Positions 1,441-19,006 of a stretch of 64,000 nt of DNA are shown piece after piece (positions within the stretch are counted from its first letter, which is position 1; each line of letters begins with the position of its first letter). The DNA comes from a virus. Location: the IMG/VR virus record IMGVR_UViG_3300042691_032761; one strand, written 5' to 3'. The notes below the pieces were generated by a model. The model did not search any database. It worked only from the letters and a program-made list of their open reading frames with translations, and was not told the origin of the DNA. A program made the translations under genes and the position numbers.

Positions 1441-1465
1441 ACCCCGATTATTTCAGGAAATTAAT

Positions 1466-2324: not shown

Positions 2325-2737
2325 TTTCGCTGACTACCAGCAACGGCAGCAAATCTGAAAGATTAGGTAATACAATCTAAATATTTTTGTGCCTTACATG
2401 CGTCTTTACAATACCAGTATACCACACAGTAACAATCGTCACAAGTCCTTGGTATTCATAGACTTGTGTTCAGTCTGACTATTACTATCCGCTTGCTGAC
2501 TGTTGGCATATTCGGCAAATCCGGTGGTTTTCATAGGACAAAATCATTTTATAATCCACAATAGATTTTTGCCCTAAACCCAACAGTACCAAGCACTTAC
2601 ATCCATTGTATCGTCAATCAGGCGGCTCGTCCATGAGGATGTAACAGATTCTTTGACATAAACCGTTGGTATCACTTAACTTAGGACGAAATTCGCGGGC
2701 CGGTTTGCTCTAAGTCCTTTGCTGTCAAGCACTTAGG

Positions 2738-2792
2738 AAAAGAGCAAGGACCGCCGCAGGTTATTCCCACTGTCCCTACGGCGGCCCCGCTC
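2738..2792 (-). terminator. intrinsic terminator after the DUF932 gene
   Basis: Long GC stem GAGC-GGGGCCGCCGTAGG/CCTGCGGCGGTCCT-TGCTC followed by TTTT. Confidence 0.6.
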
Positions 2793-2814
2793 CATCACGC
2801 ACCCCACGAAAGGA

Positions 2815-3762
2815 CTAGATGGCGTTGGCAAAATCCAGAGCCTTTGCCAGAGCCTTATTGTTGTCGTTAGCATTAACACCGAACCACAGAGAGTCGAGGC
2901 GGTTATCCTCGGTGCGACCCTTGTTGTAGTTCAGATATTCGTTGAAGCCGTTATAAGCGGCCCACCAAGTACCCCGAACATTGGTTGCACTCTGCTTCGG
3001 ACCCTCAACGAGAGCCAGAATCTCGTCCATGATATTGCGGGTACGAGTCTTAATATCGCCATCCGCAGTACCTTCGATGCCCAGCATCACTTTCACATAC
3101 CGACGAATATCGGCCTGATTGAAGTTCTTCGACGCGAGGAATCGGTACTGTTCCGCAGTAGCCTCAAACCCAGCATTGATATTGTCCATGATATCACGAA
3201 CCTGTTCCAGATTATTCTTGCTGGAACGAGTGTGACGAATACGAATCAGTTTGCTGTCCGCGTGACTGTGAGCAAACGCGAGCGTATTCACACAGACCAC
3301 CCGAATGGGGGTATAGCCCACGCGAATGGCGGTTGTGCCATCGTGCGAGTTGCTGAGCAGAATGAACTTGCACACTTCATCACCCGGAACAATCTCGCTA
3401 TTGTCGCGGTTGAGTTGAGCAAGCACCCAAACCTTTTGACCGCTATGGAGCGATCCGGCAGTATGGATTCCACACTCGCCAGCATCGAGAAACGGCTGGA
3501 ACCAATCAAACGCCTCACGATTCTGGAGCGGAGTATAACGCGGCCCAACAACGCCAAGGATGCTACCGTCGCTCTTGCGATAGGTGGCACGATGGTTGAC
3601 CGGAACACCGTCAACGGTCTGCAAGTCCTTCAGACCCACTTCCCAATCCAGACCAGCGGACACAATCGCGTCCTCAATACCGATATCGGCTTCGACCTTG
3701 TTGCCAAGGCCATGCCAAGGGGTGGTACCAACAAACATCATCTGTTCAACAGCAGCGGGCAT
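2815..3762 (-). CDS. DUF932/DUF945 phage-plasmid protein (TIGR03299 family)
   Basis: TPWHGLG N-terminus, LLSNSHDG and TPIRVVCVNTL motifs, GTWWAAYNGFNEY C-terminal motif. Confidence 0.85.
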   Translation of the reverse strand: MPAAVEQMMFVGTTPWHGLGNKVEADIGIEDAIVSAGLDWEVGLKDLQTVDGVPVNHRATYRKSDGSILGVVGPRYTPLQNREAFDWFQPFLDAGECGIHTAGSLHSGQKVWVLAQLNRDNSEIVPGDEVCKFILLSNSHDGTTAIRVGYTPIRVVCVNTLAFAHSHADSKLIRIRHTRSSKNNLEQVRDIMDNINAGFEATAEQYRFLASKNFNQADIRRYVKVMLGIEGTADGDIKTRTRNIMDEILALVEGPKQSATNVRGTWWAAYNGFNEYLNYNKGRTEDNRLDSLWFGVNANDNNKALAKALDFANAI

Positions 3763-3914
3763 ATCTAACTCCTTCGTGGTTGTGATTCTCGTTCTGATAC
3801 GCTGATTCTACACTATGGTATCGGCTTGTCAAGAGTCAAAACTTGCGAAAATCTTTTTTGCTCTAAGTCGTTGTGCTGTAAGGGTTTGCGTCGAGCGGGC
3901 CCGCCGCCTCGATC

Positions 3915-4421
3915 CTAAACCCTTGGCTTGCAAGGATTTAGGAAAGGCAGATTAAAATCTCTTTCAAAGAGTTTTACTGTTTCGGTATTATAGGCACATT
4001 CTTCTGGTATATAACAATATAGTCCTACACACCTTGCCCTCTCATGTTCATCAGAGATACTCCGTTGTATATGCCGCACAGTATTACCACTACATATAAG
4101 ATCGTCAAGGATAATGTACCTAAATGGTGCTACTCCCTCTATGGTAAAGTCCGAATAACATTTGTCATTTTTTTTACGAATAACAATAATATGCTTATTC
4201 AGTAGTTCAGCAACTTGCGGAACAACCATAAGGCCACTAGTCCCGCAGCAAGCAATACTATCAAAATCTTCAGATATCTTTCTCAAATCGCATACAGCCT
4301 TGATAATAATCTTATTTCTAACCTTATGGTTTAGAACATGGCAAGTATGACTAGCACCTTGAATGATTTTTCCATCTAAAGTTTTACGAATATCGTCGAT
4401 AGTATTGTTTAATACGTTCAT
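3915..4421 (-). CDS. type I phosphoribosyltransferase
   Basis: PRPP-binding loop YIILDDLICSGNT and VIRK motif; start moved to ATG 4421 because the upstream extension is a tRNA-like element. Confidence 0.8.
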   Translation of the reverse strand: MNVLNNTIDDIRKTLDGKIIQGASHTCHVLNHKVRNKIIIKAVCDLRKISEDFDSIACCGTSGLMVVPQVAELLNKHIIVIRKKNDKCYSDFTIEGVAPFRYIILDDLICSGNTVRHIQRSISDEHERARCVGLYCYIPEECAYNTETVKLFERDFNLPFLNPCKPRV

Positions 4422-4427
4422 AGTGAA

Positions 4428-4501
4428 AACAGACGGATGGATTCGAACCATCTAATAGAAAGAGAGATAATAGAATACTTGTCCCACCAAGTTGCGTCTG
4501 T
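4428..4501 (-). ncRNA. tRNA-like element with no pairable anticodon arm
   Basis: Acceptor ACAGACG/CGTCTGT, D-arm ACTT-GGTGGGAC-AAGT, T-arm GATGG-TTCGAAT-CCATC; central region pyrimidine-rich and unpaired. Confidence 0.6.
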
Positions 4502-4511
4502 TGCAGAGAAG

Positions 4512-4664
4512 TTAATCGTCCACTAGTTCGTCGGTTAGATTATGATAGTTATATTCCCACGAATCCTGGGAATCTTGTTCGTTTTCACAAAAAACGTATT
4601 CATCGTCATACAACTCATCAATGTTGTTGTAATCAAGATAATCACGATCATCATAATAAAGCAT
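4512..4664 (-). CDS. 50-aa highly acidic protein
   Basis: Not in the ORF track: MLYYDDRDYLDYNNIDELYDDEYVFCENEQDSQDSWEYNYHNLTDELVDD; AGGAG RBS and own promoter at 4687-4715. Confidence 0.7.
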   Translation of the reverse strand: MLYYDDRDYLDYNNIDELYDDEYVFCENEQDSQDSWEYNYHNLTDELVDD

Positions 4665-4716
4665 AAGTCTCTCCTTCTTTGCTTCTATTCTACACCAAAC
4701 CGGTCAAACTGTCAAG

Positions 4717-4790
4717 TGGGCCTCCCGGGACTCGAACCCGGAACTTACGGTTTAAAAGACCGCTACTCTAACCAGTTGAGTTAGAGGCCC
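4717..4790 (-). tRNA. tRNA-Lys(TTT)
   Basis: Full cloverleaf; anticodon arm GCGGT-CTTTTAA-ACCGT. Confidence 0.95.
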
Positions 4791-4845
4791 ATGTGAGACT
4801 GATTATACAGGAGCCTCAACCTGTTGTCAAGCGTCAGCCTCCGAG

Positions 4846-4921
4846 TAGGGCGAGTAGGAGTCGAACCTACCTATGAACACCTTATAAGAGTGTCGGATGC
4901 AACCGGCTTACCTTCCGCCCC
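4846..4921 (-). tRNA. tRNA-Ile(TAT)
   Basis: Anticodon arm ACACT-CTTATAA-GGTGT; T-arm GTAGG-TTCGACT-CCTAC; non-canonical A8 and weak D-stem. Confidence 0.75.
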
Positions 4922-4975
4922 GTGTTGTGATTATACTATAGTTATCGGCGTTGTCAAGAGTAAACTTTAATCTAA

Positions 4976-5047
4976 CTGGCTCGGTAGGACTCGAACCTAC
5001 AACCGGGCGGTTAACAGCCGCCAGCTCGACCATTGAGCTACGAGCCA
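4976..5047 (-). tRNA. tRNA-Asn(GTT)
   Basis: Cloverleaf; GGCGG-CTGTTAA-CCGCC; G73. Confidence 0.95.
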
Positions 5048-5052
5048 ATAAG

Positions 5053-5123
5053 TTCCGGGGCTAGGATTCGAACCCAGACAAAGAGAACCAAAATCTCTGG
5101 TGCTACCGTTACACTACCCCGGA
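5053..5123 (-). tRNA. tRNA-Gln(TTG)
   Basis: Cloverleaf; AGAGA-TTTTGGT-TCTCT; U1-A72. Confidence 0.92.
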
Positions 5124-5125
5124 GT

Positions 5126-5329
5126 CTACATATCATACTCACGACGCCACTGTTTGTCAACGGCCTTGCGGGTACGCTGTCGCTTGGGGCGATTGTCGAA
5201 CGTAGTATCCGTTTTGTGTTCCCTGTGTCCCTGACGCATTTCCCACGGCATAACCTTCTTGATTTTGATTACGTTGCGGCGTGGCCTCATATCGTCGTTG
5301 TTGTGGAGGGTAATCATACCATGTACCAT
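5126..5329 (-). CDS. basic hypothetical protein
   Basis: Arg/Lys-rich ORF ending 2 nt before tRNA-Gln; overlaps the next ORF in another frame. Confidence 0.5.
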   Translation of the reverse strand: MVHGMITLHNNDDMRPRRNVIKIKKVMPWEMRQGHREHKTDTTFDNRPKRQRTRKAVDKQWRREYDM

Positions 5330-5516
5330 TTTCGTGTTGGTAATAAACCTTATTTGTGTTAGGATCGTAAGCCATCAAACAATACTGAATCGGATAGTTA
5401 GTTTTTACACTATCGGTTTGATTTGTCAAGGGTTTGAGTTGACCGTTTGAATAATCCTTATACCCATTATAAACAAAACCCAATAATGCCAAAACTATTG
5501 GAATCCATTGTACCAT
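5157..5516 (-). CDS. membrane-anchored hypothetical protein
   Basis: N-terminal TM segment MVQWIPIVLALLGFVY; AAGGG RBS; sigma28-type promoter at 5559-5586. Confidence 0.55.
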   Translation of the reverse strand: MVQWIPIVLALLGFVYNGYKDYSNGQLKPLTNQTDSVKTNYPIQYCLMAYDPNTNKVYYQHENGTWYDYPPQQRRYEATPQRNQNQEGYAVGNASGTQGTQNGYYVRQSPQATAYPQGR

Positions 5517-5656
5517 ACCGTTTCCCTTTGTCAAGAGCCGCTTCGTTCCCATACCCTAGTATCGACATTCTGTAGACATCACTTTAAAAAATCTTTGGCA
5601 TGGTATTCGCCGCCCGCGGATTTGCCCTAAGTCCTTTATGGCCAAAGGTTTAGGAA

Positions 5657-5728
5657 TAGCCCCAAGAGGAATCGAACCTCTAACCAGTGCTTAGAAGGCA
5701 CTTGTTATATCCATTTAACTATGGGGCC
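5657..5728 (-). tRNA. tRNA-Arg(TCT)
   Basis: Cloverleaf; AGTGC-CTTCTAA-GCACT. Confidence 0.93.
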
Positions 5729-5729
5729 G

Positions 5730-5910
5730 TCAACGCCGCAAGCCCCGGTGGCGTCCCACCGAGGCTATGCGGTTCGATAGTGTTGTCATCTTACTATCTT
5801 ATATAGTAATAATCTCTAAAGGGTAGACAACTTCGTGGTTACCATCCACTTATCTGGTTGGTTAGACCCCTTTAGGTTGCACCTTTGGCCTTGCAACGAG
5901 CCATCTTACC
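5730..5910 (-). ncRNA. candidate structured RNA leader upstream of tRNA-Arg
   Basis: No ORF; stems GTTGCA/TGCAAC, CTAAAGGG/CCCTTTAG, TTACTAT/ATAGTAA, CCGCA-AGCCTCGGTGG/CCACCGGGGCT-TGCGG. Confidence 0.45.
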
Positions 5911-6192
5911 TATTACGCGGGAGTTACCCCGCCGCACTATGCCTAAAATCTATTTATACTGGCATAGTCCAGTGATATTCAACTTTCGATAAGCGTAGCC
6001 TTGGTTTCGGTTCCAGTAGCATCATTTGCAAGATTCAACTGGTCATTCAACCATCGAACAAACTCGCTCTTATCAAAATCTTGATTATCTGTAATCTCAA
6101 CTGTAAACTTCATAATATTCTCTCTTTCTTATTACGCGGGTCGAAACCCGCCGCACTATGCCTAAAACCTGTTTATACTGGCATAGTCCAGT
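5911..6192. repeat. 63-nt structured direct repeat (5911-5973, 6130-6192)
   Basis: Identical except for a 6-nt hairpin loop and one compensatory pair. Confidence 0.85.
5979..6113 (-). CDS. 44-aa hypothetical protein between the 63-nt repeats
   Basis: MKFTVEITDNQDFDKSEFVRWLNDQLNLANDATGTETKATLIES; purine-rich RBS. Confidence 0.6.
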   Translation of the reverse strand: MKFTVEITDNQDFDKSEFVRWLNDQLNLANDATGTETKATLIES

Positions 6193-6196
6193 TTTG

Positions 6197-6457
6197 TCAA
6201 GCGGTAGCCTCCGCAGTCTCACGCTTAGACTTTTTCGGATTCGCGGAATCACCCGCAGCATCCGCAGTCACGCCGGTCACCCTGGCACGCCAAACCTTGT
6301 AACCCTGCTCCGAAAACGCCTTGACTTCTCCAGCCTTGACGCTCGCGTGAACGTCACCGGGAAGCGTATCGGCCAGACACTCACGAATAGCCTCAGTCAC
6401 AACTTCGCGGTCGAGAGCATCGGCAACAACGTCAACATTGAAAGAAAACTTCTGCAT
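6197..6457 (-). CDS. hypothetical protein
   Basis: Start MQKFSF with GGAG RBS; promoter at 6497-6526. Confidence 0.7.
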   Translation of the reverse strand: MQKFSFNVDVVADALDREVVTEAIRECLADTLPGDVHASVKAGEVKAFSEQGYKVWRARVTGVTADAAGDSANPKKSKRETAEATA

Positions 6458-6695
6458 GATAAAAACTCCAAAAAGTGTAATCGAACCAAGTAAAGTAATG
6501 ATACCCAAACCATCATCACTTGTCAAGTGCTAGACCGAACTTTTTGGCGTTGCGGTTGGTTAGCGTCTTGTCGTGTGATGCTATCAGTATACCACTGTTA
6601 TCGGCACTGTCAACACCGCTTCATGAATCTTTTTTTGATTTGCTGTAAGTTGTTGTGTAGCAAGGGTTTACGTCAAGGCGGCCGGCCGCCCTCGC

Positions 6696-6944
6696 CTATT
6701 CTTCGTCGCCCCTAGATAGTTCCCAACCCGCAGCCCTTACAATACTTTTAGTAGCGATCACATTAGTTTGTGGATCAGCACTAACATAATCCCTATAGCC
6801 ACGTTCATCAACATAGAAATACTCGTCGATAGTATCAAACTTATTAGTCAATAACAATCCACTAATCGCAGCCTCAAGAGCATCTCTTTTACTTAGTGTA
6901 ACTTCTAGTGTGCCAGATTTGATATAAAACTTACCCATGGTCAA
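6696..6944 (-). CDS. hypothetical protein
   Basis: Translationally coupled to the upstream ORF. Confidence 0.65.
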   Translation of the reverse strand: MTMGKFYIKSGTLEVTLSKRDALEAAISGLLLTNKFDTIDEYFYVDERGYRDYVSADPQTNVIATKSIVRAAGWELSRGDEE

Positions 6945-7165
6945 CTCCCAAGGCTAATAAGAATATCGTCGTCAAAATCGCCAAAATCCAAATCCTCGTC
7001 AATATCCAGCAGAGCATTTAGCCAGTAACCATGAATAAGTGTGTCGGCATTAGTACCAAAACTTATATCACTATTAGAAATAGCGTCCATTACATCGTCA
7101 TAGTCTAACTTATTATGATCGCACACATCCTTCAAGGCCAGACATTCGTGAGTAAAACTTTTCAT
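6941..7165 (-). CDS. acidic hypothetical protein
   Basis: Asp-rich; AGGAG RBS. Confidence 0.7.
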   Translation of the reverse strand: MKSFTHECLALKDVCDHNKLDYDDVMDAISNSDISFGTNADTLIHGYWLNALLDIDEDLDFGDFDDDILISLGS

Positions 7166-7173
7166 TACAACTC

Positions 7174-7878
7174 CTAGTGAGAGGGAAACAACACGTTAGC
7201 CAAACCGCGAACACACAAGTTACAGTCTACACTACCCTTAGTCGGAGTGCAAGTCACAACGCCACGACCACGGCGGATTTCGGGACAAGTCACAAACTTC
7301 TCTCCGTCGATGATTACCAGTTTAGGCAGACTCTTACGCCACACTTCCGCAGCGGCTTTACGCTTGGGACGCTTTTTGGCAATCTTTTCGTCACTATCGC
7401 ACCACGCGAACAGTTTGAAACCCGCCAGCGATGCCGTAGCCTTGTCATTAGCATTATGCACACTGGCATAGACTGCCATATACTTATCCATCATGCTAAG
7501 GCGAGGATCATAGATATGGGTATAAAACCACATATCGGGAAGCGTAGCACCATCGGCAAGAATACTCTCGCAAGCCCACACTACATTGTCAACGTAGTCG
7601 GTGTCTAGTTCGCCATTGAGAAACCAATCGCCACGCTCATGCCAACGAATACTCTTACCTTGACGAATAGCGTCCAGAATCATGGAGCGAATACGTCCAC
7701 GCTCAGTAATGACGTTTTGCATACCAGCAGGACGAACATTAGGATACATTTTCTCAGTCTGCTCGGCATAACAACCGTTACCGAGAAACTCACACGTTGA
7801 CGGACAAGTATCGCCAACTGGCCTAGAAACGACCAAACAACCCTTGCCCAACTTGTCATTACCGTTTGCAACTTTCAT
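7174..7878 (-). CDS. GP88-like Cys-rich phage protein (probable Fe-S/metal binding)
   Basis: GNDKLG, TCPxxCxxxxxxCYA, IRWHERGDW, WFYTH and C-terminal CP...CxxC motifs. Confidence 0.65.
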   Translation of the reverse strand: MKVANGNDKLGKGCLVVSRPVGDTCPSTCEFLGNGCYAEQTEKMYPNVRPAGMQNVITERGRIRSMILDAIRQGKSIRWHERGDWFLNGELDTDYVDNVVWACESILADGATLPDMWFYTHIYDPRLSMMDKYMAVYASVHNANDKATASLAGFKLFAWCDSDEKIAKKRPKRKAAAEVWRKSLPKLVIIDGEKFVTCPEIRRGRGVVTCTPTKGSVDCNLCVRGLANVLFPSH

Positions 7879-8011
7879 GATTCTCTCCTAGCGTGTCTCG
7901 TGATTCTACACTAGATTATCGGCACTGTCAAGCGGTTTTCTTTAGAAAAAGTTTGGCACGGTATTCGCGCCCGCCGCCTTGCCCTAAGTTGTTTAGCAGC
8001 AAGGCTTTAGG

Positions 8012-8404
8012 TCAAGAGAGATAACCCTCACAACCCAAATCGACCAGTTCTCGCAGCAGATTCTCAGCCGCTTCGGGAGTTGCAAGAGAGATGCTGTGCT
8101 TTGCTCCAACCTTAGCCGGAACAAACTTATCATACTTCCAACCGCCAACCAGATAGTCGGTCCATTCCTTGGCTTCCCTCAGTCCCCAGCCAGTATGGAT
8201 ACGAATAGCCTTGATGCACTTGATTCTGTTATCAAGGCTCAAGCCGCCGGTAATGGTAACGATCTTGTTCTGGTTCACACCCAACGCCACTTCGATAGCG
8301 TTGATGATGCGATCACGAAGGCTTCTGCCCTCATCACCACCGTAGTTGTCGCACTGGTTAGCGAACAGAACAGCCTCACGCACAGTCAAATCAACCTTGA
8401 TCAT
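8012..8404 (-). CDS. ribosomal protein bL12 (L7/L12) C-terminal-domain-like protein
   Basis: RIKCIKAIRIHTGWGLREAKEW...EAAENLLRELVDLG matches the bL12 CTD pattern KIxVIKxVRxxTGLGLKEAKxxV...EEAExxKxxLEEAG. Confidence 0.75.
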   Translation of the reverse strand: MIKVDLTVREAVLFANQCDNYGGDEGRSLRDRIINAIEVALGVNQNKIVTITGGLSLDNRIKCIKAIRIHTGWGLREAKEWTDYLVGGWKYDKFVPAKVGAKHSISLATPEAAENLLRELVDLGCEGYLS

Positions 8405-8832
8405 TCTCTTTCCTCTAAAATGTAGACTTGTTTACCGTTAGTAATCAGTGTTGCGTATTCAGTCTCATCCCACACAAACTCATTACTATCACTCTCACGA
8501 CGCCAGTATGGATCACGAATGGGATTATAGTATAACTTCTCAAGGTTGTCAACAGGCAAAATCGGATAAAAATCCTTGCGAAGCATAACCTCTTGGCACT
8601 TTACCCACCCACTCACATCATGCACACCACTCTCAAATACTTGCTTGGCTTTATTGGGCCGATTGCGAAGTCTACAACCCCTCATTTCCAACTGATATTC
8701 ATTAGGGTCATAATAATACTCATCGACCTTCTTACTACCCTGCATAACCTTGATTTGCCAGTGCATAAAATGCTTTCCACCACCAAGATGGAATCGCACC
8801 TCACCGTACATTGGTTTCTGTTTCATGCTCAT
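8401..8832 (-). CDS. hypothetical protein
   Basis: 143 aa; VRFHLGGGKHFMHWQIK; start sits directly after the promoter (near-leaderless). Confidence 0.7.
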   Translation of the reverse strand: MSMKQKPMYGEVRFHLGGGKHFMHWQIKVMQGSKKVDEYYYDPNEYQLEMRGCRLRNRPNKAKQVFESGVHDVSGWVKCQEVMLRKDFYPILPVDNLEKLYYNPIRDPYWRRESDSNEFVWDETEYATLITNGKQVYILEERE

Positions 8833-8915
8833 AGTATACCTTATCGACCAATGGTTGTCAAGACCTTTAATCTTTCGCTGACTACAGCCACCCCAGCCAA
8901 ATCCGAAGGATTAGG

Positions 8916-9003
8916 AAAAACAAGCGTTGGGTTGAGCCATACTCGACCGCCATTTAACCGTGGCTTCTTTGATATCATTCTGCCAACGGCCCACCCACTT
9001 GTC
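8916..9003 (-). ncRNA. candidate 88-nt sRNA (three-way junction followed by U-tract)
   Basis: Own promoter at 9010-9049; closing stem ACAAGUG/CGCUUGU, inner hairpins, UUUUU end; no ORF. Confidence 0.55.
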
Positions 9004-9114
9004 TCTCTAAGTATACTCTATTATCGGGCATTCGTCAAGCATCTCTTTAAAAAATCTTTGGCACAAAACGTGCCCGCGGCCTCGCCCTAAGTGCTTTAGG
9101 AGCAAGGCTTTGCG

Positions 9115-9330
9115 TCAGATCACTAGATCGGCAGAGTTCTGTATGGATACTCTCTCTCTGGCCGCTCCGACTTTCTGGATCACCACCCTGTGGTCACCGA
9201 GAAACTCCACCGTACCATCCTCGCCCAGTGCGATCCACGCCTGACCACCGCCGCCATCGGCCGGATGGAAGAAAAACAGCGTCTCGCCCTCCTCCTCAAA
9301 ATCGCTCCGAACCCACTTGCCATTGCTCAT
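9115..9330 (-). CDS. hypothetical protein
   Basis: Last gene of a 4-gene GC-rich cassette; stop abuts the dyad at 9086-9114. Confidence 0.65.
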   Translation of the reverse strand: MSNGKWVRSDFEEEGETLFFFHPADGGGGQAWIALGEDGTVEFLGDHRVVIQKVGAARERVSIQNSADLVI

Positions 9331-9497
9331 CGCTTCTCCTCCACTACTTGATACCGATGCTCATTGATGGTAATCGTACCACCAAACATACTCCAAGTCA
9401 ACTCCTCTTTCATCGCTCGCTTGTGGGCCTTGAGCAGAGCAGGGTAGTCCTGCTGAAACTGCTCGTCGGTCGCATCAGTCCAGATTATTTGCATCAT
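9327..9497 (-). CDS. hypothetical protein
   Basis: Start MMQIIW with AGGAG RBS. Confidence 0.6.
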   Translation of the reverse strand: MMQIIWTDATDEQFQQDYPALLKAHKRAMKEELTWSMFGGTITINEHRYQVVEEKR

Positions 9498-9648
9498 TTG
9501 TGATCTCCTTGAGTTCTGCCAGACGAGCATCCTTCTCGGTCCCGTCATCGTATTCGACCCACGCGGCCCAACGCCCGATCAGTTGCACTACGGTTCCCTC
9601 ATGGCCGATAATGCCGTTCCAACGAATCCGACTTCCAACGGTAATCAT
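9475..9648 (-). CDS. SH3/KOW-like mini-protein
   Basis: MITVGSRIRW...EGTVVQL...WVEYDDG beta-barrel pattern. Confidence 0.55.
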   Translation of the reverse strand: MITVGSRIRWNGIIGHEGTVVQLIGRWAAWVEYDDGTEKDARLAELKEITNDANNLD

Positions 9649-9908
9649 TCGACGTTCACTCCGTATTTGTGACACTGAAACCTTTCGTCCACCTGTTCCG
9701 GCTCGTCGCACGGCTCGATCATTATCGAAATGCCGTTTGGTGCGGTGAACACGGTGCGATAGGGACCATCTTCCCAATCCGGCATATCGTTGTTCACGCC
9801 GATCTGATCCATTACCAGTGCGTCGGCATGGAACGTGGCTAGATCGAAGTTGCGGAACGCCTTGACATGGATCACCCTGTCTCCCGTCACCATCAACACC
9901 AGATGCAT
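9645..9908 (-). CDS. hypothetical protein
   Basis: AGGAG RBS; promoter at 9931-9971. Confidence 0.65.
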   Translation of the reverse strand: MHLVLMVTGDRVIHVKAFRNFDLATFHADALVMDQIGVNNDMPDWEDGPYRTVFTAPNGISIMIEPCDEPEQVDERFQCHKYGVNVE

Positions 9909-10033
9909 AACCCTTCTCCTTGTGATGCTAAGTCTACCATCTATTATCGGCCTGTCAAGAGGCTTTCTTTAAAAAAGTTTTGGCACGGCATTCGCGCCCG
10001 CGGCCTCGCTGTAAGTTATTTACTAGCAAGGCT

Positions 10034-10294
10034 TTATGGCGACCACGGATAATCCTTTGGATATGGTTCGCTAGGCGGTTGCGGCTTGTCCTGTCCCTCG
10101 TCGGGCATCCACCACGGAGCATCCATATAATCTACATTTCCCCAAGATTCCCCACAATAGATATTATGAATACAAAACTTATCCTCATAGTTTATCTTAT
10201 AAACCCCACGCCACACACCAATAGCCTCACCATAATAGATGATCTTTTGGCCGTTGATTGGGCGACGAGGCCCGTGAAAACTAATCCACTCCAT
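10034..10294 (-). CDS. hypothetical protein (DUF551-like)
   Basis: MEWIS...PxxGQ N-terminus and WMP C-terminal pattern. Confidence 0.55.
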   Translation of the reverse strand: MEWISFHGPRRPINGQKIIYYGEAIGVWRGVYKINYEDKFCIHNIYCGESWGNVDYMDAPWWMPDEGQDKPQPPSEPYPKDYPWSP

Positions 10295-10455
10295 TATACC
10301 CTCATTGCTATCTTTTCGTATTCACTAATCAAATCTGCTACCGTTATACCATGCTCTTCTGCTAAAGTCAATGCCTCTTTCTTAGCAGGACTCATAATCA
10401 ACATGGCATTCTTTAGAACCCTGAGAATCTTAAATATTGCTTCTTCTTTAGTCAT
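10294..10455 (-). CDS. hypothetical protein
   Basis: Start MTKEEA with GGAGG RBS. Confidence 0.6.
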   Translation of the reverse strand: MTKEEAIFKILRVLKNAMLIMSPAKKEALTLAEEHGITVADLISEYEKIAMRV

Positions 10456-10715: not shown

Positions 10716-10774
10716 AACTTTTCTCCTTGTGCTACCATTCTACTCTAGTATTATCGTCAAGTCAATAGGAAAAA

Positions 10775-11168
10775 ACCAGCGAATCTTTTACGCCCCGATT
10801 CTATTGTCCTGGTGGCTACCCTGTTACGGACCATAGGAAACCGCCCACGGAAATCCTTCCTAGGCATAGTTCATGACTCATGCTGTCTGGCTCTTGGGAA
10901 CGGTTACTGGTTGTATTGTAATGAGTTTAGGCTGCTCTCGCCGTTTCCGTGCTGCGCTTTCCTAGTTGGCTCTTTTATACGTTATTTATCCAACTAGCCT
11001 ACTCATTGTATTACTCGTGGTCTGGATGCAATCCCACATAGATTAGCACTACTATACAGCGTATAAGCCCGCTGTCAACCCACAGCCCGATGTGACGGTA
11101 GGTTTATCGTAATGGCTTATCCTAATCTAGTCCCTCAGCATGGACCCACGGATGTTTGTTTTGTCTTA
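10775..11168 (-). ncRNA. candidate large (about 390 nt) structured ncRNA
   Basis: Own promoter at 11176-11203, no credible ORF, many nested complementary stems, hairpin plus U-tract at the end. Confidence 0.6.
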
Positions 11169-11306
11169 CTCTTTCATTCTACACTCTATTATCGGCCTGT
11201 CAAGAGCATGATCGTGAGAAAATAAAAGATTCCGCCCGCCCGCGGCCTCGCCCTAAGTCCTTTGTTTCCAAAGGGTTAGGGTTAGAGGCTTTAGCGAGAA
11301 GACGGC

Positions 11307-11714
11307 TTAGAACATCATTGCCGCAACACCGCTCTTGAACAGAGCCCCACCCAAGAGGGGGCGACGGCAGTTCACAACGCGCTCTGCGTAGAAGTTGCGA
11401 ACAGTACCATCGGGACTCTCACCAGTAATAAGGTGATGAGTACGCTTGAACTTACTATCATTTCGTCGGTAGTTGCTAGTAGCATTCAGCCGACTAATCT
11501 GATTATCATTCAGCGTACAAACATCACGCACCTTGACCATATAACGCTCAGGATCACCCTTGTGAGGCTGGAGATACTCAAAGTTATACACTTCTCCAAC
11601 CCTAGCCGAACTCAGACTAGCGTTCACGCCAGAGTAAACATGAAACAACACAAAAGCAACAACAACACCAACCACACCAACGGCAAACAGACCATAAGAA
11701 AAAACATCAGTCAT
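11307..11714 (-). CDS. membrane-anchored WYL-like protein
   Basis: N-terminal TM helix; VYNFEY...ERY...GTVRNFYAERV resembles the WYL RxF...RI pattern. Confidence 0.55.
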   Translation of the reverse strand: MTDVFSYGLFAVGVVGVVVAFVLFHVYSGVNASLSSARVGEVYNFEYLQPHKGDPERYMVKVRDVCTLNDNQISRLNATSNYRRNDSKFKRTHHLITGESPDGTVRNFYAERVVNCRRPLLGGALFKSGVAAMMF

Positions 11715-11774
11715 TTAGAACCCTTTCGTTGAAATGAAACCTTTTCTAGAGTATACCACACCAAACCACGCTTG

Positions 11775-12062
11775 TCAATCTTCTTTCCACTGAATCGTGG
11801 GAGTTGACGGACCATAATATCGATACAGATATTCAAAGTCCATATTTCCATACCGCTCATAGTTCAGGATCAAATCACTCACCCTGCACTGGTACAGCGT
11901 AGGAGGAGTCATCTTGCTCCACTTGTAGGTACGATAACCATCCTTTGTGATGCAAGTAATCCAATCCTTACCAAACTTCAAAATAGTACCCCAAACATTC
12001 TTACCATTATAGGTAAAGTTTAGGGTGTTGCTAACCCAGTAGGGCCAATAGGGATTGCTCAT
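11775..12062 (-). CDS. WYL/Sm-like small protein
   Basis: LNFTYNGK...G...TKDGYRTYKWSKM; similar to 18214-18480. Confidence 0.5.
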   Translation of the reverse strand: MSNPYWPYWVSNTLNFTYNGKNVWGTILKFGKDWITCITKDGYRTYKWSKMTPPTLYQCRVSDLILNYERYGNMDFEYLYRYYGPSTPTIQWKED

Positions 12063-12202
12063 CTTTTCACTCTCTTTCTTCTACTTCTATTATCGACATT
12101 CTACCACGGGAACTTTAGCCCGTCAAGCAGAAAATAAAAAATTTTGGCGGCCGGCCAGCTTGCCCTAAGTCATTGTGTTTAAACAACTTAGAGCGAGCCG
12201 TT

Positions 12203-12409
12203 TTAGTTTGTGGACGGAGTTGACTTTTCCACACACTTCTCCACAATCTTTCCCATAACCATCTTATGAAAAAGTTGTTCTGCAATCATAATAGCATCTG
12301 CCCTCATTTCGGCAGGATACTCCCTCATTTCGGTCAAACGCACCACGGTGGCCGTAAAGTTCATAATGTCAATCATCATCTGCTCATGCTCGGTCACAAC
12401 GGCTTTCAT
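12203..12409 (-). CDS. hypothetical protein
   Basis: Start MKAVVT with AGGAG RBS; own promoter. Confidence 0.65.
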   Translation of the reverse strand: MKAVVTEHEQMMIDIMNFTATVVRLTEMREYPAEMRADAIMIAEQLFHKMVMGKIVEKCVEKSTPSTN

Positions 12410-12523
12410 CTCTTTTTCTCCTAGTAAGACCATTCTACTCTGCTAAAGACCGCTTGTCAACACCAAAAACTTTCGCTGACTACGCCCACGCCGCCCAAAT
12501 CCGTAGGATTAGGCAGGACAAAA

Positions 12524-12596
12524 TGACCCCACGGGGATTCGAACCCCGGTAAACGGAACGAAAATCCGTTGTCCTAGGCCACTAGACGATGGGGCC
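12524..12596 (-). tRNA. tRNA-Glu(TTC)
   Basis: Cloverleaf; D-arm GTC-TAGTGGCCTAG-GAC; ACGGA-TTTTCGT-TCCGT. Confidence 0.92.
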
Positions 12597-12598
12597 AA

Positions 12599-12757: not shown

Positions 12758-13060
12758 GAGCAATCTCCTTTGCCGGATTATACACATTATCGACGCATTG
12801 TCAACACTAACTTTAGAAAAAATTTGGCACAGATTTCGCGGGCGCGCCGCCTTAGCGTAACCCTTTATGTCTCAAGAGTTTACGATCCATGCCGCAACGC
12901 AACCCGCCACGAATGATACAACCAAAACAATCTTATCCATTTACTAATCCTTTTTTATTGGAAAAACAAGATCAGAAACAATGTAACAACCAACAATGCC
13001 AGCAATAAATCCCACACCAATCTGTACCCAGTTTATATCGACCATCCGTGGCCCCTTTCT

Positions 13061-13387
13061 TTAAGGAATAACAAGATATTCATTTGTAACCAGCATATTA
13101 TCTTCAAACTCTGGCTCGTTTCCAGCATTAACATACCATGTATAGTTTTTCTGGTAAACTTTAACAGGGCTATACTGATTAATACGCTTTTTAGTGGTAC
13201 TGGTACGATATCCCCCACTATTCAACTTATAAAGCCCGTTAGGGTAGATCACCACCACCTTAGTACCGTGGAGTTCAATCGCCACACTGCCATCGTGTTC
13301 AATGTAAGCGTAGGTATTATTTCCAACCTTACGCTGGCTGCGATTACGCTTGCCCAAAACCATCTTTGTCGCTTCGGCGTGAGTCAT
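13061..13387 (-). CDS. conserved hypothetical phage early protein
   Basis: LHGTKVV...LNSGGYRTSTTKKRINQ motif; own promoter. Confidence 0.7.
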   Translation of the reverse strand: MTHAEATKMVLGKRNRSQRKVGNNTYAYIEHDGSVAIELHGTKVVVIYPNGLYKLNSGGYRTSTTKKRINQYSPVKVYQKNYTWYVNAGNEPEFEDNMLVTNEYLVIP

Positions 13388-13438
13388 TTTCTTTTCCTTT
13401 GGGATGATGCTCTAAGTCTACAGGATATCATCGGCCTG

Positions 13439-13675: not shown

Positions 13676-13811
13676 TTCTTTTCCCTTTTGTGTTACTACT
13701 TATATCGGTATTCTACAGGCCAAAACTTTACCTGTCAACAACAAAATAAAAGATTCCGCGGCCCCGCCCGCTCGCCCTAAGTGCTTATGCACAAAGGGTT
13801 TGCGGCAAGCG

Positions 13812-14284: not shown

Positions 14285-14297
14285 GACTTTCTCCTTT

Positions 14298-14504: not shown

Positions 14505-14665
14505 TTCTCCGGGGTGATGCTCTGATTCTACAGAGTATTATCGGCGTGTCAACAAACAAAAATCCAGAAAATAAAAGATTTTGTTATTCGCTCTAAGGTG
14601 TTGATACCAAAGGGTTTACGCCGCAGCGGCGGGCGGCTGTCAACCCCCACACAGAGGGGATATTG

Positions 14666-14998: not shown

Positions 14999-15446
14999 TT
15001 TCTTTTTCCTTTTGGTGATGATGGTAGTATATGAAACTTTTTCCGCCGCCGCAACCCCCCTTATTCGGGGATCGGCCAGATTTGCACATCGGCCCCACAG
15101 TGTTCGCCACACTGAGGGCAAACGCCGTGTTCGGCGTGAATCGGGGTCATTTCAGCCCCACAGCAATCGGACACAATCAGGATATCATTCATCATCTTTC
15201 ACTCTCACTTATCGACATTATACCCTGCATTCTTTAGATAGCAAGAAAAAAAAATGTATTTTTTGTGGCACACGATTTGCTAATGCAAAAACCGTGCCAA
15301 AAATCGGGCGCGGCGATTAGCCCTAAGTCCTTGCCACATAACGAGTTACGCTGGCTGTCGGTATCGTTATCCGGCTAGAATAGCCGGTACAACCCCCGCA
15401 GATAGGGGGCTACCCCCCTTTCGAGGGATAGCTCCCACACCCCCTT

Positions 15447-15635: not shown

Positions 15636-15817
15636 TTCAGAGATTCTCCTCGTAAAAAGAAATACCAGCGTTCACACACTGGCTAAAAGCGTAGGTGATC
15701 CAAGCCGCAACGCTCAGATAGGCCACCAGAGCCATCCAATCATTGAAAGTCAGATACATGATTTCCCTTTCGTGTGAGTGTATTCTACCGAAACTTTTTC
15801 GCGGCGTCAACCCCCTC

Positions 15818-15976
15818 TCAGGCAGGGGTCAGTTCGCTATCGCAGAAAGTCGATATCGTCTGATCCTGCACCCTAACGACCCACACGTTTCCCTCGTCGT
15901 AGTACCACTTCACGATCACCCCCTCTTTCGGAGTGGTGTAACTGTTCACGATAACCTTGTCGCCAACTTCGAACAC
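15818..15976 (-). CDS. SH3/KOW-like mini-protein
   Basis: GTG start; FEVGDKVIV...EGVIVK...VVRV. Confidence 0.6.
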   Translation of the reverse strand: MFEVGDKVIVNSYTTPKEGVIVKWYYDEGNVWVVRVQDQTISTFCDSELTPA

Positions 15977-16112
15977 GCTAGCCTCTCTTTCTCGTGAGTG
16001 TATTCTACAGTATAGTATCGGCTTGTCAACAAAAAAAATCCACAAAAAATAAAATCGTCACAAGTCCTTATGGCACAAGGGTTTACGTCGAGGCGGCGCC
16101 CCGGCCACCCCC

Positions 16113-16358
16113 CTATTCGGGGTACGATTCCCCTCGCTCCACCATAGCACAGTAGTCGTTCAGTTTATCATAGAACGAATCGGCATAGTAAAGCAACACG
16201 CGGTCGGGGTGATTGTTGATGGTAACATAGTAACCACCATTGTAAGGCTGATCCATCTTGGCATGGCCACTATGCGTGATAGAGTATTCGCAATCATCGC
16301 CCATCATTTCGTGGATAGCGTGAACGATTTCGTTGACGGTAACGTGGCGAAGCATCAT
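16113..16358 (-). CDS. hypothetical protein
   Basis: Follows directly after the 16360-16593 gene. Confidence 0.55.
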   Translation of the reverse strand: MMLRHVTVNEIVHAIHEMMGDDCEYSITHSGHAKMDQPYNGGYYVTINNHPDRVLLYYADSFYDKLNDYCAMVERGESYPE

Positions 16359-16359
16359 G

Positions 16360-16593
16360 TTAGTTGTCCCATCCGATATTTTGGTCAATGAAAGGCCCAT
16401 ACACCATACCCTCATCCACCCAACTCTCATTCGGCGTGGGGGTGAGAGTCACGATATCCTTACCCGTACTGTCAAACCGAATCCGATACATAGCCTGTCG
16501 GTAATCGTTGCCGGGGATGATATCCACCACAACTCCCCGTGCGATGGTATCGTTTCGACCACCAGCACACACTCTATCACCAATCTGAATCAT
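16360..16593 (-). CDS. SH3/KOW-like mini-protein
   Basis: IQIGDRV...RGVVVDI...YRIRFD. Confidence 0.6.
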   Translation of the reverse strand: MIQIGDRVCAGGRNDTIARGVVVDIIPGNDYRQAMYRIRFDSTGKDIVTLTPTPNESWVDEGMVYGPFIDQNIGWDN

Positions 16594-16653
16594 GTTTTCC
16601 CTTTCGTGTTGAGTGGATCGTACCAGACTTTTTTCGCCCCGTCAACCCCACTA

Positions 16654-16830
16654 TTAGGTGGGTTCCGAAAGCCATTTGTCCAGAGCATCTACGCTAGTGC
16701 AGTCAGCACGGGGGATTTCGATTTCCTCGTCGCCAACTCTGACTAGATAGGTATCGGTATCCATCTGGACGATCACGCCCGTGGCGTACATATGAGCAAT
16801 CCGCACGAAAACCTTGTCACCGATTCGCAT
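16654..16830 (-). CDS. SH3/KOW-like mini-protein
   Basis: MRIGDKVFV...TGVIVQ...YLVRV. Confidence 0.6.
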   Translation of the reverse strand: MRIGDKVFVRIAHMYATGVIVQMDTDTYLVRVGDEEIEIPRADCTSVDALDKWLSEPT

Positions 16831-16876
16831 GGTCTTTTTCCTCTTGTGACTATTGTACCAGACTTTTTTGGCCCCG

Positions 16877-17080
16877 TCAAGCCCCCACAACGGGGGAGCG
16901 ATTCCGACGGTTGTATTCCATCATCGCCTTTTCATCCTGAATCATCCGGACTACGCTATCCCGGAACGCGGTCACGAGCACATCGTAACCCATCTTCACA
17001 TCGTACAGGTGGTAGAATCCACGAGCATCCTTCGTCAGCACGAAACCCACCTTCACGGCTTCCATCTTCAGATTTTTCAT
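16877..17080 (-). CDS. hypothetical protein
   Basis: Own sigma70/sigma28 promoter. Confidence 0.65.
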   Translation of the reverse strand: MKNLKMEAVKVGFVLTKDARGFYHLYDVKMGYDVLVTAFRDSVVRMIQDEKAMMEYNRRNRSPVVGA

Positions 17081-17215
17081 TTTCGTTTTTCCCTTACTTT
17101 CTATATCGGTATTCTACAGTGTGAACTTTAGTTGTCAAACAAAAAAAATCGGATTTGTTTACCCCCATAGCGAGGGGGTCGCGCTGCCCGGCCGGATTGG
17201 CTGGGACACCCCCCA

Positions 17216-17674
17216 TTAGCGGGACATTTTCAAGATACGCTCCACGGTCCCGGCCTTGACCATCTTTTCCAGATGTTGCCGAATGCGGAAACCGTCAACA
17301 CCTTCCGCTCGCATCGTGGCCGCGATATCGGCCAGACTACGGATTTCGGCCTTGCGAGCATCGTCGAGCATCCGCACAAAAACTTCCCGGCGATGCATGA
17401 CTTCGATAGGGTTGCCGAAACCGTCGGCCATGGACAGCGGCGGAAGGATCGACAACTCGCCGACACTGGTATTTTGCTTCCGATTGTTGCACACTCCACA
17501 AAGAGCCTGCAGATTGTCCAGACTGTCGGAACCACCCTTGCTTTCCGGCACAATGTGATCACACTGTAGAGCATCGCGGTCGCCGATACCACAAGCACGG
17601 CAACGGCCGTTGTCGCGGGCGATAACTTGTTCGCGGATCGTCGCGGGAATCGGCTTTTTTCGTCGCATGATCAT
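17216..17674 (-). CDS. HNH endonuclease
   Basis: RDNGRCRAC...DHIVPESKGGSDSLDNLQALCGVCNNRK. Confidence 0.9.
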   Translation of the reverse strand: MIMRRKKPIPATIREQVIARDNGRCRACGIGDRDALQCDHIVPESKGGSDSLDNLQALCGVCNNRKQNTSVGELSILPPLSMADGFGNPIEVMHRREVFVRMLDDARKAEIRSLADIAATMRAEGVDGFRIRQHLEKMVKAGTVERILKMSR

Positions 17675-17911
17675 TTTCCCTGCTAGGTTATATCGGCATT
17701 TTACCCTACGATACTTGAATGTCAAAGAAAAAAAATCTGAAAAAATAATCGCTAGAAATATCTTATTTGGCACAAGGTTTGCATATGCAAATGCCATGCC
17801 AAAATATATTATTCCGCGTAAAAGATTACATTAGGTAGTACATCCCCCATAGGTGGGGGTTCGGCTGCCCGGGCGGATTGGCTGGTACAACCTATCCCCC
17901 CTAGTGGGGGA

Positions 17912-18136
17912 TCATGAAACCCCCATCCAACTCGCGTTTTCCACGCAATAATCGTAGAACATATCGTTCAAAACACGTTCGGCCGTGTTGAGTGTGATTC
18001 GCTTTTCTGTCATGATAGCGTCACACTTTGCCACGAAGCGGTTCAGACGGGGATAGTAGATGATCGACACTTCGTGAGAGTTATCTTGCCAGATGCGAGC
18101 CTTGATATTGTTCAGTTGGTTGAGCGTCTTTTCCAT
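17912..18136 (-). CDS. hypothetical protein
   Basis: 74-aa ORF with purine-rich RBS. Confidence 0.65.
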   Translation of the reverse strand: MEKTLNQLNNIKARIWQDNSHEVSIIYYPRLNRFVAKCDAIMTEKRITLNTAERVLNDMFYDYCVENASWMGVS

Positions 18137-18213
18137 TTTCTTTCTCTTTTCTTTGTGTTAGACTAGATTGTAAAGACCACCGAACCCTGCCGTCTACCCC
18201 CCCCGATGGGGGA

Positions 18214-18480
18214 TCACCGGATCCCGTAGCGTGTGACCCTGCGATCCTTCACCGCGTCGTAGCCGTCATCCGTGCTGCGGAAGGTGGGGACGAGCGGCCG
18301 AAAGATGCAATCGACAGACTTTTCCCAATAGATAGACTTGACACCATCGGCAGTCTCGACCACGAGGAGATTGCCTTTTTCCGTCTTACGCTGCGACAGC
18401 ACTTTGCCAGCGTAGGGCTTGCCGTTATAGGTGCAACGGATCGAACCACCGACGACATCGTAACCAGCACACTTGATCAT
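18214..18480 (-). CDS. WYL/Sm-like small protein
   Basis: IRCTYNGK...GKV...ETADGVKSIYWEK; similar to 11775-12062. Confidence 0.55.
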   Translation of the reverse strand: MIKCAGYDVVGGSIRCTYNGKPYAGKVLSQRKTEKGNLLVVETADGVKSIYWEKSVDCIFRPLVPTFRSTDDGYDAVKDRRVTRYGIR

Positions 18481-19006
18481 GTCAAAACCTTTCGTAGTAG
18501 TGATGCCCCGATTATACAGTATGGTATCGTCAACGCAAGAAAAAAAAATGAGAAAATCTTTTTCTTTCGATATTGTAAGGATTGGATTTTTGGCATAGGT
18601 TTTGCTGCCAGATTGGATTAGGTAATCCATAGGATACTCTCCCTCGTTAGGGGGGAATCGTATCATTGTGGGATTGTATCCCCCTATTGGGGGGTATACG
18701 CTTGTTCATCCTCCTATTGGGGGGTAGGATCCCTCTGGCGTGGTAGTGTACACTTGTGATCCCTCTGTCGGGGGGTATCTCCCTCTCCCTCTATTGGGGG
18801 GAGTCTCCCCTCCCCTCTCGCGGGGGGTATGTAGCGTTCCCCCAACTAGGGGGGTTTTTCTGTTTCCCCCACGAATAGGGGGGTTTTCGGCCGGGGCGGC
18901 CGGTGGTCCAAAAAAAATAAGCACCCCCATATAAAAATTGGCCAGTTTATAAAAAAAGAGGCGAGTGTTGCCACCCGCCCCTTTTGAACCAAGGGTCGAA
19001 ACTATT

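Follow-up and report, generated by a model that had tools for sequence, protein, structure and literature searches.

Putative promoter and boundary cassettes bearing two additional promoter-type motif classes in the early region of a freshwater jumbo siphophage

The 64,000-nucleotide (nt) stretch of viral DNA considered here, called the window throughout, comprises bases 1650-65649 of a 75-kb IMG/VR virus record (IMGVR_UViG_3300042691_032761) with a CheckV completeness of ~53%. Its source is an uncultured freshwater jumbo siphophage, and freshwater and lake-water metagenomes are among the public runs that contain the window stretch. From 19.7 kb on, the plus strand carries the terminase, portal and structural genes, including that for a tape-measure protein of 3,593 amino acids (aa), at ~33% G+C; the identification of this last protein as an N4-like virion RNA polymerase was considered and rejected. 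Between 2.4 and 19.6 kb lies a minus-strand block of ~40 small genes and six of the seven tRNAs in the window, with a G+C content of 43-52%; this early region exceeds the rest of the genome in G+C by 12-18 percentage points. The subject of the present analysis is the set of repeated intergenic modules in this block. To judge from their sequences, it is on balance probable that these modules are composites, in which promoter and boundary cassettes resembling the promoter-early stem-loop (PeSL) elements of T4-type phages have gained two further classes of promoter-type motif.

The phage belongs to a large family, since the related viral contigs found with its terminase number more than 590 and include complete genomes of 153-230 kb. 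The closest terminase similarity is to Bacillus siphophages, and near-identical phage records were sought and none found. An epimerase gene was uninformative as to the host, its matches being spread across many phyla with Planctomycetota slightly over-represented.

We define a module as an intergenic unit with at least three of the following elements, and all motif counts in the window were compared with dinucleotide shuffles. Read along the minus strand, the usual order is a stop codon, a 29-bp inverted repeat (11-7-11; here the dyad), a G+C-only tract, the reverse complement of TGGCAY-N5-TYGC (the sigma54-type box), an A/T tract, a sigma70-type promoter TTGACA-N16/17-TAnAAT, a Shine-Dalgarno sequence and ATG; a sigma28-like pair, TAAAG-N17/18-CGATAW, is interleaved with about half of the sigma70 promoters. 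Seventeen such modules lie between 2.7 and 18.6 kb, all serving minus-strand genes, which bears out the original prediction of about 15 intergenic modules of shared order. The five examples that it had singled out as clear (5559-5654, 7904-8011, 9010-9114, 9931-10038 and 12777-12884) all agree with their description, and at 8012, 9115, 10034 and 3915 the dyad indeed abuts or overlaps the stop of the upstream gene. The predicted position of the G+C tract was correct for most modules but not for four (3860, 6642, 14590 and 16057), in which the tract lies beyond the other side of the dyad. The fullest unit is dyad-G+C tract-dyad, found at 3862-3942 in the window and also in the related locus L018, and the modules with the tract on the other side are partial copies of this arrangement. 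In a second module type C5-loop-G5 hairpins, set directly against the -35 hexamer, take the place of the dyad; the window contains 16 C4+-loop-G4+ hairpins, several of which abut a -35 hexamer. G+C-only tracts of at least 10 nt number 19 (6.2 +/- 2.4 expected), and in about half of cases the module folds have z = -2 to -2.7. An end-to-end scan of genomes G000, G001 and G002 found all motifs confined to one G+C-elevated block adjoining the terminase side of the genome, and upstream of the late genes none of the three promoter-type motifs was found.

The sigma70-type promoter is the putative core of every cassette. TTGACR-N16/17-TANAMT has 26 exact matches in the window against 0.46 expected, 25 of them on the minus (gene) strand, where each lies 20-40 nt 5' of a ribosome-binding site or a tRNA; T/A runs are found upstream of the -35 hexamers.

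The sigma28-like pair occurs 12 times against 0.25 expected, always on the minus strand, though one copy, at 13035-13063, represents the conserved beginning of a gene and is to be discounted. Of 200 unique early promoters drawn from the window and from 80 related loci, and anchored on their sigma70 hexamers only, 110 contain CGATA, 63 of them in the spacer and 47 within 9 nt after the -10 hexamer, against a background of 1.8% per 17-nt window. With CGATA taken as the anchor, the start of TAAAG is 22 or 23 nt upstream in 68 unique contexts, and any other offset accounts for about one. Two classes of promoter emerge: in class I, CCGATAA lies inside the sigma70 spacer with TTGACA 9-12 nt upstream, and class II has the form TTGACA-nn-TAAAGTT-N8-TAGAAT-n-CCGATAT, with TTGACA 30-31 nt upstream. 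The distance between TAAAG and CGATA is constant in class I, class II and intermediate registers (8841-8869 in the window) as the sigma70 hexamers shift by ~20 bp; and stand-alone copies with no sigma70 promoter precede genes in relatives (L013:3324, L042:2248 and L044), with one more at 587-615 in the window. This constancy of spacing, and the stand-alone copies, mark the pair as an independent bipartite element. On these motif statistics it is real, as had been predicted for an interleaved sigma28-type -10/-35, and it is selected, assorting independently of both the sigma70 promoter and the sigma54-type box.

The sigma54-type box has nine exact matches in the window against 0.31 expected, together with a near-match at 9060-9074, and related loci supply ~125 further unique copies with the consensus TTTGGCAY-RRnAT-TTGCT. 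Among 1,097 TGGCAY contexts, TYGC follows at exactly N5 in 131 and at each other spacing in 3-18, so the predicted sigma54-type motif also stands as a real bipartite element; indeed the counts of the sigma70, sigma28-like and sigma54-like motifs and of the G+C tract all exceed those of shuffled sequence. The box agrees with the sigma54 -24/-12 consensus at every specified position, the GG-N10-GC spacing and flanks included, and the TCGC variant present in the window is presumably the form found in E. coli glnAp2. In relatives, at least seven different genes have a sense box 32-49 nt upstream of the ATG, together with a short leader that is conserved, and lack a sigma70 promoter, an arrangement that has the appearance of ordinary promoter geometry; one of these genes (in L010) is the orthologue of the window gene 15061-15195, which has a double box and a class II promoter. 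In a further 13 cases in relatives a sense box is found 30-39 nt upstream of a sigma70 promoter. Within the window itself, seven of the nine boxes are antisense to the cargo gene and the two sense copies are the second halves of palindromes (15266-15299 and 17768-17801), and for this reason the boxes would be unable to drive the genes downstream of them; the earlier claim that the box fires cargo genes in the window has accordingly been dropped. The antisense copies are followed after 8 or 13 nt by the start of a dyad, and in the window those 13 nt are G+C-only.

These results bear directly on the model put forward in the original prediction, in which each module is a single portable unit that recruits or titrates three host RNA polymerase holoenzymes, so that cargo genes fire in any host state. 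The three motif classes do occur together in modules 4, 6 and 9, with looser versions in modules 2 and 5; the sense boxes of relatives, whether alone or upstream of sigma70 promoters, would suit such a unit; and the large number of boxes in each genome, once amplified by phage replication, could titrate a sigma factor of low abundance. Portability and the reality of the three motif classes have therefore survived, but a fixed composition has not: the elements assort independently and are found in all combinations across modules, and the upstream sets of orthologous genes differ between phages. Given also the orientation of the boxes in the window, the lack of an encoded activator (detailed below), and the G+C-only stretch between box and dyad, which is poorly suited to melting, we regard the single three-holoenzyme unit as distinctly unlikely.

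An opposite possibility is that only the sigma70 promoter and the hairpins are functional, the other strings being passengers of repeats or arms of hairpins, and TAAAG/GATAAT a weak, staggered sigma70 promoter. Five window modules, of the D11 family, are indeed paralogous copies; three boxes form the 3' arm of G+C-rich hairpins that are followed by a T run and are terminator-like on the gene strand (7955-7971, 9060-9074 and 9982-9998); and TAAAGA-N17-GATAAT can be read as a weak sigma70-type promoter, TAAAGA being able to serve sigma70 (PMC2859248). Yet the conservation of the box is that of a motif, in which N5 and the flanks vary and the specified positions persist, in phages with terminase identities of only 77-82%, and 113 of the 133 unique boxes have no palindromic partner. 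The box as a hairpin arm was thus rejected as a general explanation (there are 10 palindromic pairs among the 133), although it holds for the three window copies just mentioned. Likewise the sigma28-like spacing is kept in non-homologous contexts as well as in the stand-alone copies, and terminator-like sites are only marginally enriched (22 against 14.9 +/- 4.2 expected). That the additional motifs are mere passengers is, in our estimate, very improbable.

Fourteen window copies of the dyad align with nine invariant columns, and a sequence-only covariance model built from them gave 324 matches in the window and 42 loci. In the best 150 of these 324 (137 distinct), the 11-bp helix is paired at 84.8% of positions, against 83.8% when partners are shuffled among sequences, and the inner pairs are broken in ~40% of copies. 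The dyad is thus conserved as sequence and not by compensatory change, and an RNA hairpin with covariation is not supported. Its arms differ consistently, TAAGT against TAAAC, with the result that G-U pairs arise on the strand that does not carry the genes; one orientation is common to 118 of the best 150 matches; and copies frequently occur as pairs that flank the G+C tract, ~53 nt from each other. One subgroup of relatives (L034, L040, L059 and L062) has CTGCCATTTTGGCAG palindrome pairs in the two positions of the dyads after the box, around a G+C-rich linker. No clear periodicity was seen in the helical phasing of the dyad to the -35 hexamer. From the sequence conservation, the orientation bias, the pairing around the G+C tract and the CTGCCATTTTGGCAG replacement, we favour a protein-binding boundary element over an RNA hairpin, though both strands can fold.

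If the dyad is bound by a protein, that protein, and the reader of the other motifs, might be encoded by the phage. The phage family encodes two very divergent sigma70-family proteins. The gene for one (19690-20346, plus strand; 218 aa) opens the plus-strand block and diverges from the early region, and region 2 is the only part of its product that can be recognised; the other (L092:1090-1650), of 186 aa and with region 4, is present in all four complete relatives, and its best specific model matches are weak and include WhiG/FliA. Neither was assigned as FliA, the similarity in region 4 being weak and PDB searches uninformative, but these two proteins could be the readers of the sigma28-like motif. 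Taken further, TAAAG...CGATA would be a middle-type promoter for a phage sigma factor, and the box and dyad would be operators that merely resemble sigma54 sites. These two sigma70-family proteins, the conservation of the dyad as sequence, the lack of a phage-encoded sigma54 activator, and the replacement of the dyad by CTGCCATTTTGGCAG in one subgroup, as expected for a co-evolving binding protein, are all in keeping with this. On the other side, a full match to the sigma54 consensus, with GG-N10-GC and flanks, is not readily expected of an unrelated protein, and the late and replication regions, where promoters for a phage sigma factor would be expected, lack the sigma28-like motif. The established geometry of sigma70-family promoters, moreover, prevents sigma70-family proteins from reading elements only 5 bp apart. 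We consider it rather unlikely that all of these are sites for phage factors.

The composite reading is further supported by comparison with the closest relatives (terminase 94-95% identical). The late region aligns with theirs end to end, and the early region is reduced to short, reordered blocks, each corresponding in BLAST alignments to a gene with or without its own promoter, or to a promoter alone; homology to L004 and L005, for example, ends exactly at the -35 hexamer at 14552. The view of the modules as portable regulatory cassettes, advanced in the original prediction, is upheld by these breaks in homology at modules and by the differing element sets of orthologues. No match to a tyrosine or serine recombinase (PF00589, PF00239) was found in five genomes, which makes homologous exchange between repeated modules likely, as has been proposed for PeSLs; it is accordingly likely, as far as such alignments can tell, that recombination of this kind shuffles genes among related phages.

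Several observations nevertheless weigh against the composite reading. Module copies within one genome are paralogous, so that the counts given above are not of independent events; and the breakpoints at modules could partly reflect a faster divergence of non-coding DNA. The spacer of the sigma28-like pair is n12-13, against n11 in canonical sigma28 promoters, placing TAAAG 22-23 nt before CGATA and not 21. The family-wide orientation of the box, 49 sense and 84 antisense, is unusual for a promoter. Lastly, neither sigma54 (PF04552) nor an enhancer-binding ATPase was found in the four complete relatives or the window fragment (G000-G004), a weak PF00158 match having been rejected as such an activator when the protein proved to be RuvB; productive sigma54 transcription would therefore need an activator from the host.

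The individual modules, all serving minus-strand cassettes, are as follows, with elements on the minus strand unless marked (+). Module 0 (2694-2737), downstream of a DUF932 gene (2815-3762), comprises a G+C tract (2694-2703) and a dyad (2709-2737). Module 1 (3805-3942) is the fullest unit: a flipped dyad (3913-3942) over the stop at 3915 is followed by a G+C tract (3895-3908), a second dyad (3862-3890), an A/T tract and a sigma70-type promoter (3805-3832) with CCGATAC in its spacer, and its plus-strand fold has a free energy of -43.9 kcal/mol (z = -3.97). The tRNA cluster (Gln, Asn, Ile, Lys; 4687-5160) is served by four sigma70-type promoters, at 5132-5160, 4930-4957, 4802-4830 and 4687-4715, of which the second also contains TAAAGTTT-N-GCCGATAA (4942-4969) and the last heads a small open reading frame (ORF; 4512-4664) after tRNA-Lys. 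Module 2 (5507-5654), after tRNA-Arg, has a dyad (5626-5654), a G+C tract (5608-5619), an antisense box (5596-5610, +), a T run with TAAAG-N-GTCGATAC (~5553-5582), which is a CGATAC variant outside the strict CGATAW pattern, and a sigma70-type promoter (5507-5534). In module 3 (6586-6691) the G+C tract (6677-6691) precedes the dyad (6644-6672), and the promoter (6586-6613) has GCCGATAA in its spacer.

All seven tRNAs of the window (1353-12597; anticodons TTT, TAT, GTT, TTG, TCT, TTC and ACT) read A/U-ending codons, and together with the G+C profile this suggests a host of higher G+C content, in which early-expressed tRNAs would serve the A+T-rich late genes. A 55-nt repeat of family D9, which contains a UUCG-type tetraloop hairpin, is present at 1249-1303, 2321-2375, 8869-8923 and 12467-12521, with at least two copies directly 3' of a tRNA gene and 5' of a promoter. 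On the minus strand, at 5911-5973 and 6130-6192, are two pistol ribozymes (Rfam RF02679), which score 54 and 57 bits where the gathering score is 34.5; they lie within a 70-nt direct repeat, each directly 3' of a small early-region ORF. Beyond these and the tRNAs, the Rfam scan of the window gave nothing further.

Module 4 (7903-8011) begins with a dyad (7983-8011) that abuts the stop at 8012, followed by a G+C tract (7966-7978), an antisense box (7954-7968, +) that forms the 3' arm of the terminator-like hairpin at 7955-7971, a sigma28-like pair (7916-7944) and a sigma70-type promoter (7903-7931). A promoter pair at 8833-8869 unites a sigma70-type promoter (8833-8861) with a sigma28-like pair (8841-8869) in which the TAAAG-CGATAA distance is kept although TTGACA is shifted relative to other promoters. 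In module 5 (9010-9114) the dyad is at 9086-9114, the G+C tract at 9072-9081, the sigma28-like pair at 9021-9049 and the sigma70-type promoter at 9010-9038, and a near-box with GTGC in place of TYGC (9060-9074, +) forms the hairpin over the same positions; in module 6 (9931-10038) the dyad is at 10010-10038, the G+C tract at 9993-10005, the pair at 9944-9971 and the promoter at 9931-9958, and the antisense box (9981-9995, +) is the 3' arm of the hairpin at 9982-9998. Module 7 (11176-11280) lacks the box and has a dyad (11252-11280), a G+C tract (11232-11247), a T-rich tract and a promoter (11176-11203) with GGCCGATAAT in its spacer. Next to it, at 10737-11176 on the minus strand, two consensus promoters (11203 and 11078) stand at the head of a 440-nt stretch that contains no ORF. 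L005 retains some of its segments at the nucleotide level, and as Rfam offers no match to the stretch even at E = 1, it is a candidate non-coding RNA.

Module 8 (12090-12192) has a dyad (12164-12192), a G+C tract (12146-12156) and a class II promoter (12098-12126) whose spacer holds TAAAGTT and whose -10 hexamer is closely followed by GTCGATAA (pair 12090-12117). Module 9 (12777-12884) combines a variant dyad (~12852-12884), a G+C tract (12837-12851), an antisense box (12825-12839, +; TGGCACAGATTTCGC), a sigma28-like pair (12787-12815) and a sigma70-type promoter that agrees with the consensus at 12 of 12 positions (12777-12804). Module 10 (13702-13804) has a dyad (13776-13804), a G+C tract (13756-13771) and a class II promoter (13710-13738) interleaved with TAAAGTTT...ACCGATAT (13702-13730). 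Module 11 (14525-14637) has a G+C tract (14626-14637), a dyad (14592-14620) and a promoter (14525-14552) with GCCGATAA in its spacer. Module 12 (15209-15350) contains a dyad (15322-15350), a G+C tract (15305-15315), a palindromic double box (15266-15280, +, and 15285-15299) and a class II promoter TTGCTA...TATAAT (15217-15244; pair 15209-15236), where the orthologous gene in L010 has the sense box only. Module 13 (16002-16106) has a G+C tract (16092-16106), a dyad (16059-16087) and a promoter (16002-16029) with GCCGATAC in the spacer.

The hairpin-type modules (15782-16896; repeat family D12) contain C4/5-loop-G5 hairpins (16882-16896 and 15811-15828) and a shorter CCCAC-loop-GTGGGG hairpin (~16646-16661), which does not fit the hairpin pattern counted above; their promoters, at 16852-16880, 16617-16645 (9 of 12 consensus positions) and 15782-15810, directly abut the hairpins and have a common conserved spacer. 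In module 14 (17103-17178) a C5-loop-G5 hairpin (17162-17178) precedes a class II promoter (17111-17138) interleaved with TAAAGTT...ACCGATAT (17103-17130). Module 15 (17690-17801) precedes the HNH endonuclease gene and combines a palindromic double box (17768-17782, +, and 17787-17801) with T tracts and a sigma70-type promoter (17698-17725) followed by GCCGATAT. The endonuclease gene itself (17216-17674, minus strand) lies among the cassettes, between this double box and a hairpin-type module, and its product could contribute to cassette mobility. Module 16 (18514-18605) comprises an antisense box (18591-18605, +), a T tract and a promoter TTGCGT...TATAAT (~18514-18541) with ACGATAC in its spacer. 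Between this last early cassette and the divergent junction, an ORF-free stretch at 18650-18905 holds about nine tandem C5/6-loop-G4/6 hairpins with a period of 26-29 nt, of the same type as those that close the cassettes at 14.6-18.2 kb.

On the composite reading, the region from ~2.4 to 19.6 kb would be a hyperplastic early or accessory region made up of ~30 minus-strand cassettes, each a self-contained gene or tRNA unit that has its own near-consensus sigma70-type promoter and A/T-rich upstream tract and that sigma70 holoenzyme would drive at the start of infection. The cassette boundaries would be drawn from a small repertoire: the 29-bp inverted repeat, often doubled; C5-loop-G5 hairpins; and G+C-rich hairpins with a T run. 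The sigma28-like pair would provide a second entry point, for a FliA-type holoenzyme containing either sigma28 of the host or a sigma factor of the phage, and the sigma54-type box would most likely be bound by the sigma54 holoenzyme of the host. Given an activator, this holoenzyme could start transcription from boxes that face a gene. The boxes of the window, which nearly all face backward and lie beside a 13-bp G+C-only stretch that would resist melting, might instead hold closed complexes at the cassette boundary or act as antisense promoters; that sigma54 holoenzyme can occupy promoters in an inactive state is stated in PMC4591121.

It is tempting to go further, and to suppose that the boundaries form a switchboard with working sigma70, FliA-type and sigma54 promoters, in which the doubled palindrome is an enhancer-like site and the expression or antisense silencing of accessory genes is coupled to the state of the host. 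We hold this to be fairly improbable. If it were true, the activator or repressor bound at the doubled palindrome would differ between phage subgroups, and the shuffling accessory genes would be tied to the motility and the nitrogen or stress state of the host.

Phage early regions are usually thought to run on the housekeeping sigma factor of the host alone. A widespread family of freshwater phages appears instead to keep two further promoter-type signals in its gene-shuffling cassettes, under clear selection. Should either motif be read by an alternative sigma factor of the host, then the start of infection and the expression of anti-host accessory genes would depend on host physiology, and the cassettes would constitute a natural kit of portable multi-input promoters. 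The three motifs are sharply defined, with coordinates, and are open to direct tests of binding and of 5' ends.

Among the papers searched, none was found to describe arrays of sigma54-type boxes or a sigma28-type pair interleaved with early promoters. The separate elements can each be compared with known systems. The FliA-type consensus is TAAAGTTT-n11-GCCGATAA (PMC2859248). The phage pair matches both blocks of the class 3 flagellar promoters read by sigma28 (FliA/SigD), as TAAAG(T/A)T and (G/T)(C/T)CGATA(A/T) with the CGA core, and shares with them a fixed spacing and, in the phage family, stand-alone copies before genes. It differs from them, besides its longer spacer, in being interleaved with a sigma70 promoter in two alternative registers, and in that the downstream genes have no link to motility and the phage encodes sigma proteins of its own. 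With sigma54 promoters the box shares TGGCAC-N5-TTGC and an exact GG-N10-GC, and the flanks are also alike (T before, a purine after, and A/T following TTGC). The use of a sigma54-like promoter has been reported for Pseudomonas phage YuA (Ceyssens et al. 2008, as cited in PMC10914365). Here, unlike in YuA or at sigma54 promoters in general, there are dozens of copies per phage genome, in both orientations and mostly antisense in the window. Unlike sigma54 promoters, too, the phage boxes come with neither an activator gene nor a typical upstream activator site 80-150 bp away, and have a palindrome starting 8 or 13 bp after them.

Imperfect inverted repeats at the 3' end of small cassettes, and the gain and loss of cassettes among relatives, also recall the attC sites of integrons. 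Site-specific recombination of the integron type was rejected, however, since a recombinase is absent from the five genomes, each cassette has its own promoter, and the repeat is unlike the attC R-box.

The closest parallel is with the PeSL cassettes of T4-type phages (Arbiol et al. 2010, PMC2839356; Comeau et al. 2014, PMC4122927). Common to both are strong promoters of sigma70 consensus preceded by an A/T-rich tract; stem-loops close by, among them some with poly-C/poly-G stems and some that lie within the promoter spacer; intergenic sequence conserved over ~100 bp; and a hyperplastic region of small orphan genes that are gained, lost and reordered between relatives at these elements. The present modules differ in containing the two extra bipartite motif classes, sigma28-like and sigma54-like, and a 29-bp inverted repeat that is conserved as sequence and often present twice, on either side of a G+C tract, and in lying in a G+C-richer region. 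Mini-circles and terminator activity have been shown for PeSLs. The phage is a siphovirus-type jumbo phage with a giant tape measure and is not T4-like, and its modules are therefore analogues of PeSLs and not homologous members of that class; apart from this difference of lineage, they match the PeSL features that were checked, namely the promoter, the stem-loop and the hyperplastic mosaic region.

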